This document shows, in pieces, positions 59,729 to 63,734 of a stretch of 64,000 bases of DNA (positions are counted from its first letter, which is position 1; each line of letters starts with the position of its first letter). Both the position numbers and the translations under genes were made by a program. The DNA comes from a bacterium (lineage in GTDB: Bacteria > SAR324 > NAC60-12), in assembly GCA_965205865.1 (NCBI GenBank), contig CBDBHR010000023.1:124884-188883 (forward strand). Reading direction: 5' to 3'. A model generated the notes under the pieces. The model was given only the letters and a program-made list of their open reading frames with translations, did no database searches and was not told the DNA's origin.

Positions 59729-60718
59729 CTAGCCCAGCCCATCCTGCTTCAGTCTGCTGCCATACCCTTCTTTATCCGGCGTGCTAATCTGGCCTAACTT
59801 TCTTCGATTGTAGTAGTCATCAATCACCGCCTTCTTTTCTGTATCATTGAACGTATCCCAGATTTTCTCACGCATGTACCAGGAGATTGGCCCCCGGGAA
59901 TCCTGCCACCCCCAGGGATCGTCATAGTTGAGCAATTCCCGGAACCGGGCATCATTGCGTGCCAGCATTTCTTCATTGATGCGGCCGTGAAAGTTTTCCT
60001 GAAGCCGGTAATGCGGCCCGACATAATGGCAACTGACCGAGAGGCGCAGACCAGGAGTGAGCTTGGGAAACGCTCCATGCCAGACATTGCCATGAAATGC
60101 CAGCACCGAGCCGGCCGGAGCTTCTACGGGAATTGCATCCTCCACCCCTTCGCCGGGTTCAGGATGGCGGCAGTATTTGTGAGAACCGGGCACAATGCAA
60201 AAGGCTCCATTCGCTTTCGTGTAGTCCGTGAGAATCCAATTGGTGTTGAAGACATGCGGAATCGCCGGTAGTGAGCTATACCCCGGATACATCCCCGTAT
60301 CGTCGTGTAGCCCCAGGTTTTCTCCATAACCGACAGGATCCTGCCATTTGATGAAACAGGTGAGCGAAGACAGCTGGCAATCCTCCCCGAGATAGTATTC
60401 CATCAGCGGTAAAGCCAACGGGTGTTGGATGATCTCCTCGAAGACCCGGTCTTTCTCCAGAAACGCAAAGAGCAGATGCTGACCGTTATTGGTGCCCATA
60501 TTCATTTGCGTACCATGGGCGCCTGTCTCGATGTCATATTTCGCTCCCGTATCTTCCTCAGCAATACGGAGAACCGCTTCGCGCATACGCTCCAGGATAC
60601 GGTCCCCTCCTATCTTTTCAGGAGGAATCACAGTCAAGCCATAGGCATCCAGCTCTTCCAGATGGTCGGTCAGTCCCCGCTCTTTGATCTCATGGTAGGC
60701 TGGGGAGATATGCTTCAA
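59729..60718 (-). CDS. Phytanoyl-CoA dioxygenase family protein, paralog of 33657-34595
   Basis: Shared CQLSSLT, KWQDPVGYG, HDD, PGSH; the original ATG appears to be followed by TAG. Confidence 0.8.
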   Translation of the reverse strand: MKHISPAYHEIKERGLTDHLEELDAYGLTVIPPEKIGGDRILERMREAVLRIAEEDTGAKYDIETGAHGTQMNMGTNNGQHLLFAFLEKDRVFEEIIQHPLALPLMEYYLGEDCQLSSLTCFIKWQDPVGYGENLGLHDDTGMYPGYSSLPAIPHVFNTNWILTDYTKANGAFCIVPGSHKYCRHPEPGEGVEDAIPVEAPAGSVLAFHGNVWHGAFPKLTPGLRLSVSCHYVGPHYRLQENFHGRINEEMLARNDARFRELLNYDDPWGWQDSRGPISWYMREKIWDTFNDTEKKAVIDDYYNRRKLGQISTPDKEGYGSRLKQDGLG

Positions 60719-60869
60719 TTGTGTCCAATTTTTCTACATCGGAAAATCAAAAATTATGTAAGTCATGTTACCGTGAAAATATCTGGTGGCTGAGGGCGCA
60801 CTTAGAGTGAGTGGGCCTGAAGTCCACGTTTTAGCCACAATCAGATGGATTTTCTAGGTGATGCGCTTC

Positions 60870-62096
60870 TCAGTTTGAGTTTTTTGGCAAATACCCATAT
60901 TTACTAAGCGCCTTCAACCATCTGGGAGCATTTTTTTTGACAACGAGTGCCTCATAATCAATTTGAGGATCTCGATAAGGTTCTTGCTTCTTGAGAACAA
61001 TGTAAATTATTTGAAGCATTTTATGAGCAATGGCAACGATACTACGCTTGTGTCCCCGGCGAATCACAAGGCCTTGATATCGTCCTTTAAATTGCGATTT
61101 GGTTTTGATGGCAGCATTAGCACATTCACATAATAATGAACGAACATATGCATTGCCTTTACGAGTTTTACCGGTTTTGCGTTTTCCTGCACTTTCATTG
61201 TTTCCAGGCGAGAGTGCCGCCCATGAACAAAGATGGTGTTTATTGGGAAAAGCACCCATATCGGTGCTAAGCTCGGCCAGTAACATCGTGGCAGAGATGT
61301 GGTCAATTCCAGGAATGGTTTGCAATAAGTGATATTGCTCCTGATACGGGACCATCGCCGCAACGAGCTGCTCATCGATTTGCTCTATCCTGGATTCGAG
61401 CCATACCATATGGGCCTGAATCTGTTTGAGCAAAAAACGTTGGCGCTCACTCAAAGAAGTGGACAATGATTTTTCAATCAGAGCCAACTTCGGAAGCAAC
61501 CTACCATGTAAAAGGGAGGCAAGTTTATCCGGCTGAATCCCGCCACTCTCAATGAGAGTAGCGATCATTCTTCGTGCCGAAACGCCATCGATGTCACTGA
61601 GCACGAGCCCTAATTTGATACCACAACTTTCAAGGATTTTGTGCAAGCGATTTTTTTCGCTACTCAAAACGCCTGAAAGTTTTTTACGGTAACGTGTCAA
61701 CAAACGAAGTTGACGAAAATCTTTTGGAGGAACAAAACTGGCTTTGAGTAATCCACAACGGGCAAGTTCTGCTAACCATTCTGAATCCTGTACGTCGCTC
61801 TTTCGACCAGGAACTTTTTTGATATGGTAGGCATTGACCACCCAAGGAATAATTCCCACATTTTCGAGAGACTCATAAACTTGTTTCCAGTAAATGCCTG
61901 TGGATTCCATGACCACTAACTCTGGGTTTAACTGCTTTAACCACTGAGCGAGTTCTTCCAAATCTTGTGAAAAGGTCTCGAATTCTTTGACCTTTTTGCT
62001 TATTTGTCCATCGCGATTCTCATGAAGCACTGTGGCCACAATCACAGCGCGATGAATATCTAGACCAGCACTACTTTGAGCTAAGGGTTGAATCAT
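60870..62096 (-). CDS. IS110 family DEDD recombinase
   Basis: GLDIH, VMESTG, KSDVQD, TIPGI, ESAGK. Confidence 0.95.
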   Translation of the reverse strand: MIQPLAQSSAGLDIHRAVIVATVLHENRDGQISKKVKEFETFSQDLEELAQWLKQLNPELVVMESTGIYWKQVYESLENVGIIPWVVNAYHIKKVPGRKSDVQDSEWLAELARCGLLKASFVPPKDFRQLRLLTRYRKKLSGVLSSEKNRLHKILESCGIKLGLVLSDIDGVSARRMIATLIESGGIQPDKLASLLHGRLLPKLALIEKSLSTSLSERQRFLLKQIQAHMVWLESRIEQIDEQLVAAMVPYQEQYHLLQTIPGIDHISATMLLAELSTDMGAFPNKHHLCSWAALSPGNNESAGKRKTGKTRKGNAYVRSLLCECANAAIKTKSQFKGRYQGLVIRRGHKRSIVAIAHKMLQIIYIVLKKQEPYRDPQIDYEALVVKKNAPRWLKALSKYGYLPKNSN

Positions 62097-62109
62097 CTTC
62101 TCCTCCTTT

Positions 62110-62330
62110 CCTGAATGTAGTAGTTGGCTTCACTCGTAAAGGAGGCTGAAAAATCACTTTCTTGGGTTACCTGCCTCCATGAATCAAAATTGAATCCTGA
62201 AGTCGGTCTTCTTACCGTACCTTCTGTAGAAATACTACGAAACACTCCGGGGTGCGAACCAATGAAAGCTACGCTCAGGTTACGTGACAGGATCAAGTCG
62301 CTAACGTGAGAAACGAGCGCTTCAGCCTCT
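62110..62330 (-). ncRNA. Candidate bridge RNA
   Basis: Contains CACGTAAC (target match), then ACGGTAA and CATGGAGG (donor matches); boundaries approximate. Confidence 0.65.
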
Positions 62331-62444
62331 ATTGAGTTCTAACATATTTTCATCTTCCGGGGTGAAAGCATAAGTTTTCATGAAGGTTACGTGTATATTT
62401 TTTGCATTCAGCGGTTTCCATGAATACGTTTTCCCACAAGTGTG

Positions 62445-63359
62445 ATAGGGGTCAGGAAGGCATTAGCCTCCCTGCCCTCCGAACCGTGCGTGCGGTTCTC
62501 CCGCACACGGCTCTCCAGTCGTTGGTTTCCTCATCGGGATTGGCTCGCTACCCATCGGACTTCTTTTCCTGCCTGTCAATTTAGGTTCGTGTTTGTTTTC
62601 CCTGTTAGCCATCTGGTTTCCCGATGGTGTCACAATATCCTCACCTTGTTGACAGACACAACCATGGTGAAAAGTCCGAGTTGTGCGAAGAAGAGATCTC
62701 CTTTGACTCCGTTACCCAGAGCCGCCAACATACGTTCGATCCATATCGTTGTTTCCACCCATCTCCAATGAGGAGAGGCTTCTGTTTCCAGGTTAGTCAT
62801 CTCCGACACTTTGGAAACTCCTTTTCTTGAGGATCAACTTGATGAACTGCTCGTATCCAACTTCCTACCCCGCTTCCCTCTTCGGGATTTTGCTTCTCCC
62901 GCCTTTCATGAAGCCTGCCTGTCAATTTAGGTTCGTGTTTGTTTTCCCTGTTAGCCATCTGGTTTCCCGATGGTGTCACAATATCCTCACCTTGTTGAAA
63001 GACACAACTCCATTACGGTACTATCAGGGTTCTGACTCCTCTACCTCTCACCAAAGGCAGAGGTCTCCCTGCTTCTCTCGCTTAACCTTCCTGATGTTCC
63101 GTCCCCAACCACGTTATGCGCCTGACCCTCGTTTTATCCACCACCGCAACGGGATCAGTGAGTTTCAGACTTCGCCACGAATGAGCAAGCTCGTCGCTAA
63201 CATGCCGCCGAATCGGGTTCGTTCTCCTACGGACCACCATTTCGCCTCCGGTTGCTCCCCACCCCGCCTCATGGCGACGCAGTTACCTTCGGCTACATGG
63301 CTGTGGTTTACCATGGCACGGACTTCCACCGCGCTGATTAAGCGCCTTCCCAGGCGCAC
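62445..63359 (-). mobile_element. Group II intron C with internally deleted RT
   Basis: 5' GTGCG; domain V GAGCCGTGTGCGGGAGAACCGCACGCACGGTTC; 3' CCTAT; RT remnants WVETTIWIERMLAAL and FFAQLGLFTM. Confidence 0.9.
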
Positions 63360-63734
63360 TCATTCCTGGCGAAGACCAGGAATCCAGGAGTCGCCATCAT
63401 GAAAACCTACTACGTTTATATCTTAGCAAGTAAAAGAAATGGCACTTTATATATTGGAGTGACCAATGATCTTCTTAGAAGAGTTTATAAACATAAAAAC
63501 AATCTCATAGAAGGATTTACCAGTAAATACCAAGTACGTCAATTGGTATACTATGAGACCACTTCAGAGGTAACAACTGCTCTCCGGAGAGAAAAACAAC
63601 TTAGGAAATGGAAACGAGCTTGGAAAACCGAACTCATTGAGAAAAATAATCCTCAATGGATAGATTTATATGAAACGTTTTAGTCACCCTGGATCGCTAG
63701 CATAGTGGATTCCTGATCTTCGCCAGGAGTGACA
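63360..63734. repeat. Inverted REP pair flanking the GIY-YIG gene
   Basis: (TG)TCATTCCTGGCGAAGACCAGGAATCCA and TGGATTCCTGATCTTCGCCAGGAGTGACA. Confidence 0.85.
63399..63683 (+). CDS. GIY-YIG nuclease family protein
   Basis: YYVYIL..LYIGVT..RR..H, REKQLRKWKR. Confidence 0.92.
   Translation: MKTYYVYILASKRNGTLYIGVTNDLLRRVYKHKNNLIEGFTSKYQVRQLVYYETTSEVTTALRREKQLRKWKRAWKTELIEKNNPQWIDLYETF

Follow-up and report, generated by a model that had tools for sequence, protein, structure and literature searches.

An IS110-family element of a SAR324 bacterium with a predicted upstream bridge RNA of variant guide layout

Bridge RNAs and seekRNAs are under development as programmable recombinases, and two layouts have been detailed, the IS621 type and the IS1111 type. 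In IS621 and ISEc21 the left target guide lies ahead of the right target guide (PMC11187229, PMC11208160), and in the IS1111 seekRNAs a top-strand complement precedes a bottom-strand match (PMC11187229). We compared with these systems an element carried by a 64,000-nucleotide (nt) stretch of DNA from a SAR324 bacterium (GTDB lineage Bacteria; SAR324; NAC60-12; assembly GCA_965205865.1, contig CBDBHR010000023.1, positions 124,884 to 188,883), referred to as the window, which is part of contig C23 of the host's own genome (G000). The element, which lies on the minus strand, is very probably an active or recently active insertion sequence (IS) of the IS110 family that works by RNA-guided site-specific recombination with a variant bridge-RNA layout. 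An earlier note, written by a model from the letters alone, had described such an element, and a direct check of the sequence found all of the strings that it quoted where it had placed them on the minus strand.

The transposase (recombinase) gene encodes a protein of 408 amino acids (aa) that matched PF01548 (E 1.7e-26) and PF02371 (E 7.7e-23) in Pfam and, at 271 bits against a cut-off of 140, the NCBIfam model NF033542, 'IS110 family RNA-guided transposase'. When the protein was aligned to the IS621 chain 8wt6_A, IS621 counterparts stood opposite the VMESTG Glu, both Asp in KSDVQDSE and the NNESAG Ser; the first D of the DEDD set is putatively assigned from the GLDIH motif. The protein has the features expected of the IS110 family, a DEDD RuvC-like N-terminal domain and a Tnp C-terminal domain with the catalytic Ser. 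The description of the element as an intact member of the family is borne out by these matches together with the intact open reading frame (ORF). Protein-source names and plasmid annotation gave just 'IS110 family transposase' and no ISfinder name.

The element proper measures 1,619 bp with one GTAAC counted, and its non-coding ends are 289 nt long upstream of the gene (left end) and 98 nt long downstream of it (right end). A second copy lies at C28:49439-51090 in the same genome; it is 99% identical to the window copy, each of the two has an intact 408-aa ORF, and on either side their sequences part immediately beyond GTAAC. A third left end (L003) breaks off after about 175 nt. A genome scan for the start of the left end returned 42 pattern matches, among them the three IS left ends, nine complete miniature inverted-repeat transposable elements (MITEs) and one MITE with a degenerate right end. 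One more MITE variant was missed by the pattern. The genome contains at least ten MITEs. The MITEs are gene-less and about 95 nt long. They keep about 38 nt of the left end, including its signals C-CTT-CATG, hairpin and box CACCCCGGA, and about 16 nt of the right end, around a short unrelated middle.

The insertions of the IS and the MITEs, 13 or more, are all at CG-TAA-C^AT (the caret marks the insertion point), at the 3′ end of two related host repeat families of about 100 nt. Family A reads ...AAAAAATATAC(A/G)CGTAAC^ATGACTTAT and family B ...AAAAATCGTTCACGTAAC^ATCAGTTAA. Unoccupied paralogous copies of the repeats in the same genome carry a single GTAAC, and because of this the ends proposed in the earlier note and its reconstructed empty target, ATACAC-GTAAC-ATGAC, are confirmed. 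A degenerate 12-mer designed for empty sites matched 19 times against 19.5 expected by chance, and only the 14 of the 19 that fall within repeats count; these share at least 40 nt of the repeat upstream and are unoccupied repeat copies. An orthologous empty site was sought and none was obtained, as the gene to the right is paralogous and the match in the sister genome begins 34 nt from the element. Insertion is site-specific and without target duplication, and a short core is common to target and donor, as is characteristic of the IS110 family.

The upstream region was examined in relatives of the element. Protein scans yielded 63 genome loci and 80 metagenome loci (143), whose transposases were 26-66% identical to that of the window, mostly 40-61%, and about 130 homologous upstream regions were compared. 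These regions are plainly homologous. A covariance model, R1, with 113 positions was made from 21 sequences and a hand-written structure; across the 143 related loci and the genome's own copies it had 61 matching places within the first set and 72 within the second. In the window, as in the relatives, its matches are upstream of the gene. In a second alignment 96.4% of 751 cells were paired, 10 of the 12 pairs had changes on both sides and none of 500 shuffles was equal; when the partner columns were slid by 1-3, pairing fell to 30-50%.

Two further stems lie outside the R1 model. The outer stem showed compensatory changes in RNAalifold, and its mean longest helix was 9.79 when the two strands came from the same element versus 7.16 when they came from different ones (85 elements, 1500 sampled cross pairs). 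The stem that closes the donor part behaved similarly, with a mean longest helix of 8.19 with the element's own tail versus 6.39 with others (85 elements, 1500 cross pairs). The model and the stems agree with a bridge RNA upstream of the gene in which a target loop precedes a donor loop, an arrangement that had been anticipated by analogy with IS621. The predicted RNA would be roughly 190 nt long. In Rfam, no family matched the upstream region; between 60000 and 64000 the matches were just group II intron pieces and one chance small nucleolar RNA match.

The earlier note had read an 8-letter match to the left flank as the left target guide (LTG), and covariation among the relatives supports this. 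In the window CACGTAAC lies at 62286-62279, and the exact string occurred in 15 of 3000 mononucleotide shuffles of the 289-nt upstream region. At positions -1 to -4 from the core, the guide was identical to its own flank in fractions of 0.91/0.75/0.68/0.36 and to the flanks of other elements in 0.43/0.27/0.26/0.17. The test comprised 77 unique guide/site pairs in 41 guide families, and none of 10,000 family-level shuffles reached the mean. When all 118 RNA columns were scanned, the four strongest associations with the left flank were columns 36-39 (window 62286-62283); CACGTAAC is therefore the left target guide. Left junctions had been placed by the left-end motif and not by the variable guide letters. 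Twelve rows were left out of this set by a crude filter for right-end-like flanks; six had ordinary flanks and the other six were true right-end/left-end junctions (L074, L044, L169, L119, L115 and L134). The copies in two RNA-library runs, X16 and X17, have two changes within the guide (62286 and 62284), which there reads AAGGUAAC. These changes may be a natural retargeting in copies whose left flank is not visible.

The predicted right target guide (RTG), which the earlier note had not clearly identified, is the segment 62302-62309, on the 5′ side of the left target guide. In copy 2, in the truncated left end L003 and in runs X16 and X17, this position reads UCAUGUUA, which is the majority allele in the lineage of the element and the exact reverse complement (8 of 8) of TAACATGA, which is the core and right flank of family A. 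Among the relatives, 85 unique loop/right-flank pairs in 49 families gave 1.93 Watson-Crick pairs of 4 in the best register versus 1.11 ± 0.11, a value reached by none of 5000 shuffles, and the strongest Watson-Crick associations with the right flank were all in loop columns 14-16.

The left donor guide (LDG) of the earlier note, ACGGTAA, was likewise upheld. Its exact string occurred in 58 of 3000 mononucleotide shuffles of the upstream region. In 38 unique pairs from 18 families, the four pre-core letters A-(C/T/G)-(G/A)-(G/T/C) agreed with the donor at 3.94 of 4 positions, which none of 10,000 shuffles attained, and the strongest associations were at RNA columns 105 and 107. Because its pre-core letters covary with the donor, ACGGTAA is the left donor guide. 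Covariation of guides with target and donor, as described for the RNAs of the IS110 family, was found for all three segments (LTG, LDG and RTG), here on an RNA that is itself predicted.

Each left guide is followed by a 2-nt extension. The extension of the LTG equalled the right side of the donor at 1.90 of 2 positions and the right side of its own target at 0.69 of 2. Among 68 elements, its letters agreed with the first two left-end bases in fractions of 1.00 and 0.94, versus 0.56 and 0.28 expected, and the only RNA letters that tracked the right donor were these two after the core in the LTG. The extension of the LDG equalled the right side of the target at 0.95 of 2 positions versus 0.64 ± 0.07 when shuffled (0 of 10,000 reached it), and the right side of its own donor at 0.49 of 2. 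Because the extensions match the right side of the other DNA, both left guides read into the recombinant junctions, left target-right donor (LT-RD) and left donor-right target (LD-RT).

The ends of the element carry further conserved signals. The earlier note had pointed, giving no coordinates, to subterminal inverted repeats as an unusual companion of an upstream non-coding region; the repeats are real, and the unusual character extends to the guide order. TGAAAATAT and ATATTTTCA form a perfect 9-bp inverted repeat. In 44 relatives the perfect inverted-repeat run had a median of 7 (range 3-10), with a mean of 7.32 for an element's own pair versus 5.51 for others. The distance between the left repeat and the TAA core is 33 nt in the window and 27-40 nt in these relatives, and the right repeat lies 2 nt from TAA, an offset that was fixed by the search pattern used. 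The MITEs carry a matching altered pair, TGAAGAAAA and TTTTCTTCA. In every relative, the stretch from the core to the left repeat contains, in succession, C-NNN-CATG, a hairpin whose stem differs between elements and a box like CACCCCGGA. A second CACCCCGGA box lies in the predicted RNA, and the two boxes share longer words within than between elements (6.07 vs 5.46 ± 0.12; 0 of 5000 shuffles). Both boxes are conserved family-wide, and their partial co-variation could have its source in shared descent.

The earlier note had also named a shared 5-bp GTAAC. The five letters are present at both ends of the window copy; the conserved core is only TAA, with the neighbouring letters shared incidentally. 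In 73 element types the left junction had TAA in 46, CAA in 10 and AAA in 1, a count conditioned on the guide's own core letters, and the right junction had TAA in 44 of 51. C followed the core in 36 of 57 left ends. The GTAAC of the window is the TAA core of the family with the common C and a G shared by chance. The coordinates of all features are collected in Table 1.

Table 1. Features of the element and its surroundings, in positions of the window.
Feature	Positions	Strand	Remarks
Whole IS110 element including both GTAAC copies	60767..62390	minus	ends set by copy 2, MITEs and empty sites
Left copy of shared GTAAC	62386..62390	minus	TAA core at 62389-62387
Right copy of shared GTAAC	60767..60771	minus	TAA core at 60770-60768
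Transposase (recombinase) gene, 408 aa, intact	60870..62096	minus	ORF, Pfam, NCBIfam, IS621 alignment
Predicted bridge RNA, roughly 190 nt	62142..62329	minus	outer stem GAGGCUGAA / UUCAGCCUC
Target-binding loop (predicted)	62273..62318	minus	closing stem 62318-62314 / 62277-62273; inner hairpin 62299-62298 / 62292-62291
Right target guide (predicted)	62302..62309	minus	UCACGUUA in the window
Left target guide, UCACG-UAA with 2-nt extension CC	62278..62287	minus	CC = first two left-end bases
Donor-binding part (predicted)	62157..62268	minus	closing stem 62268-62259 / 62165-62157; inner hairpin 62242-62235 / 62229-62222
RNA box CACCCCGGA	62246..62254	minus	same sense as left-end DNA box, identical 9/9 in the window
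Left donor guide, ACGG-UAA (62218-62212) with 2-nt extension GA	62210..62218	minus
Hairpin P	62173..62204	minus	stem 62204-62198 / 62179-62173; holds the right donor guide of the earlier note, 62181-62174
Left-end DNA signals	62356..62385	minus	C-CTT-CATG; hairpin 62380-62376 / 62367-62363; box CACCCCGGA 62364-62356
Left subterminal inverted repeat TGAAAATAT	62344..62352	minus	33 nt inside the end
Right subterminal inverted repeat ATATTTTCA	60774..60782	minus	overlaps left donor ACGG at 60774-60771
Left part of family A host repeat	62391..62444	minus	3′ end = insertion target

Several points weigh against an active RNA-guided element of this kind. The bridge RNA and its ends are predicted from comparison. 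Its single-sequence fold was unremarkable (z = -1.34), and a promoter and terminator scan of the left end found nothing, with no sigma-70-like promoter and counts not above those in shuffles. The alignments used for the pair counts had been fitted to the R1 model, a bias in their favour; the covariation shuffles ignore relatedness among the elements; and the motif that placed the left junctions required the guide's three core letters. For the right target guide, the signal in the relatives is modest, with U-rich loops opposite A-rich targets and seven registers tried, the register in the window is one column off the family's best, and the window has a derived C at 62306 (T in X16 and X17) that reduces the match to 7 of 8. 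The end-to-end junction, considered next, had no contig in the DNA run X1, which is not evidence of absence, and could also stem from tandem copies.

Four sequencing runs were examined for this junction, all of them as contigs: three from RNA libraries (X16, X17 and X18) and the DNA run X1. The joint 62385 -> 60767, which goes back 1619 (the size of the element proper) and has 5 letters that fit both sides, was found in the RNA-library runs X16 and X17, which come from one study. In X16 it lies on one contig of 1675 nt with a depth of 132, where the shorter side spans 255 letters; the corresponding length in X17 is 30 letters. Run X18 covers parts of the element only, which is not evidence that the junction is absent. 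An equivalent joint is present in the genome, where two MITEs stand head to tail at one locus (L014, contig C27) and are joined as ...TTCACG-GTAAC-CTTCATG.... The dimer and the contig joint together bear out the circle-junction sequence TTCACG-GTAAC-CTTCATG that the earlier note had predicted.

Head-to-tail junctions of right end, core and left end are common in the family (L074, L038, L119, L115, L134, L169, L044 and L060). At two of these loci (L074 and L038) related elements are directly adjacent or separated by 20 nt within long contigs, and some contigs have the size of the IS (about 1.7 kb) and wrap on themselves.

The junction in the RNA-library contigs may accordingly have come from chromosomal head-to-tail tandem copies and not from an excised circle or a transcript of one. 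We hold this to be a serious possibility, though the less probable one. The MITE dimer of this genome and the closely spaced relatives at L074 and L038 speak for it, and contigs, which show neither transcript starts, ends nor strand, fit a circle and a tandem equally well; moreover, RNA libraries may contain DNA. Against it, the junction contig of X16 closes on itself across all 1,619 bp, as is expected for a circle or its transcript, and its depth of 132 stands against 8-9 for the contigs of the flanks, though contig depth is a poor measure.

That the element is a dead relic, its guide-like strings being leftovers without present function, we consider very improbable. One of the three left ends is truncated, the right target guide of the window carries the derived C, and the genome of a sister genus (G001, 93% complete) contains no copy of the element and only a weak 59-nt match, all of which would fit a relic. 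Opposed to it are the two full copies that are 99% identical and have intact ORFs, the conserved catalytic residues, the MITEs, at least ten, at the same type of target, the presence of the junction and the near-identical sequence found in sequencing runs from 13 studies. The element is genuine and probably active.

The right donor guide of the earlier note did not survive. It was placed at CATGGAGG (62181-62174), and since a string with at most one mismatch occurred in 323 of 3000 mononucleotide shuffles of the upstream region, the match alone is not above chance. The segment forms the 3′ strand of hairpin P, and homologous hairpins were seen in the relatives. The reverse complement of the right donor, sought in the 3′ tail of 67 elements, gave a best match of 5.70 of 8 for an element's own tail versus 5.63 for others. 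The variable part of the left end, compared with the whole RNA in 71 elements, shared no own-specific word in sense or antisense (5.72 and 5.73 vs 5.75 and 5.66). A search for a programmable right donor guide in the 3′ tail, on both strands and in the whole RNA gave no own-specific signal. CATGGAGG was rejected as a right donor guide on its chance-level match, its place in a conserved hairpin stem and its lack of covariation. The IS621-like layout built on it, with a donor loop that holds a left guide at 62218-62212 and a right guide CAUGGAGG and with a right target guide expected 3′ of the left one, has a 7/8 match to the reverse complement of CCTTCATG in its favour, the mismatch being possibly a G-T wobble, and is nonetheless most unlikely, given the frequency of such matches in shuffled sequence, a last letter (62174) that is C and not G in copy 2 as well as in X16, X17 and X18, the pairing of CAUGGAGG with 62204-62198 in the homologous hairpin, the absence of own-specific complementarity in the tail and left end, and the location of right-target covariation 5′ of the left target guide.

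In the mechanism that we propose for the variant layout, an RNA of about 190 nt, encoded in the region separating the left end from the transposase gene, would carry three programmable guides. These guides would select the 3′ end of the host repeat of about 100 nt, and exchange would take place within the shared TAA(C). The 2-nt extensions of the left guides, which match the right side of the other DNA, would read the products LT-RD and LD-RT and may reflect a bottom-strand-first exchange. Recognition of the right donor would depend on fixed signals: the hairpin of the left end, the CACCCCGGA box and the subterminal inverted repeats. The MITEs of about 95 nt keep exactly these end signals and would be moved in trans. 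The pairing chemistry, the order of strand exchange and the recognition of the right donor are steps that we infer from the comparison.

The surroundings of the element contain other repeated sequences. A hairpin repeat, CCTGGTCTTCGCCAGGAATGA, occurs 74 times in the host genome (at most 2 mismatches), with tail A in 24, tail B in 25 and other tails in 25, and it forms dense head-to-tail arrays with a 44-74-nt period at C30:58-65 kb and C28:569 kb; one of its copies is at 62391-62444 of the window. A group II intron 3′ end (RF00029, 54.3 bits), at 62445-62515 on the minus strand, adjoins the same host repeat as the IS, immediately behind the hairpin of that repeat and at a distance of 54 nt from the IS; a weaker match to group II intron D1-D4 lies further up at 63121-63278, also on the minus strand, and several copies of the intron end are present in the genome (L004-L007, L010). 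Because the intron end adjoins the same repeat 54 nt from the IS, one repeat copy received both. To the right of the IS, a 329-aa ORF (59729-60718, minus) belongs to a multi-copy paralogous family with 18 DNA matches in its own genome and 7 in G001. A 94-aa ORF at 63399-63683 on the plus strand starts MKTYYVYILASKRNGTLYIGVTNDL, and we take it to resemble a small GIY-YIG-type nuclease family protein.

An upstream RNA with an IS1111-like guide order, in an element that is apparently active, would show how the two groups relate. The inverted repeats are long, the natural derivatives of about 95 nt define a minimal donor, and just three short guides would need to be reprogrammed. The extensions of the left guides predict which junctions or strands the RNA holds during exchange, and ready substrates for testing this prediction exist in the MITEs, in the empty sites and in the guide variants found in nature. 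With more doubt than confidence, we suggest that the clade (408-aa transposases, relatives 40-61% identical, in many phyla) may represent a third IS110-family layout, with permuted loops, three guides, handshake letters on the left guides that would imply a bottom strand exchanged first, and a right donor read by the hairpin, by an RNA-mirrored CACCCCGGA box and by an inverted repeat about 30 nt inside. A literature search limited largely to running text found no paper on left-guide extensions or on this guide order for an upstream RNA; the supplements of PMC11208160 may list the clade.

Among published systems, the element resembles IS621 and the IS110 group (Durrant et al. 2024, PMC11208160; Hiraizumi et al. 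2024, PMC11208158) in its DEDD/Ser recombinase, in an RNA, predicted here, in a long left end upstream of the gene (289 nt against 98 nt at the other end), in a target loop that comes first and a donor part that comes second, in a short shared core, in the lack of target duplication and in insertion into a host repeat. As in IS621, bottom-strand pairing would fall to the left guides and top-strand pairing to the right target guide. The differences begin with the guide order, as the right target guide is predicted to lie 5′ of the left one here and the reverse holds in IS621. The 2-nt non-cognate 'handshake' letters are attached to the left guides here and follow the right guides in IS621, and no covarying right donor guide was found here. 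The inverted repeats are 9 bp long, where the IS110 group has none or repeats of 2-3 bp; the core is TAA(C), against CT in IS621, and the protein has 408 aa versus 328 residues in the IS621 chain. A length of 408 aa is within the size range quoted for the IS110 subgroup (PMC11187229).

With the IS1111 group (ISEc11, ISPa11 and ISKpn4; Siddiquee et al. 2024, PMC11187229) the element shares subterminal inverted repeats within the quoted range of 7-17 bp, a predicted top-strand-complementary segment ahead of a bottom-strand one, and donor ends that seem to be read mostly through fixed signals. It differs from that group in that their RNA lies downstream of the gene and the one predicted here upstream; a few exceptions with an upstream non-coding region are mentioned, such as ISMtsp17 (PMC11187229). 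The transposases of the IS1111 group have 330-350 aa and their terminal extensions measure 7 bp (left) and 3 bp (right); the present protein has 408 aa, and 33 nt separate the left repeat from the end. In CazIS110-1 (bioRxiv 10.1101/2025.10.25.684509), which we set beside the element by its text description, the loops are described as pairing to the integrated element's junctions, LT-RD and LD-RT, which fits the left-guide extensions found here. ISPpu9 and MITEPpu9 of Pseudomonas putida (PMC12288879) offer a parallel in gene-less derivatives that have IS ends and are presumably moved in trans, in tandems and in insertion into host repeats; MITEPpu9 has an sRNA (small RNA) gene, whereas the MITEs of about 95 nt described here consist of the ends and a short unrelated middle. 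The element fits neither of the described IS110-family groups and mixes features of both.

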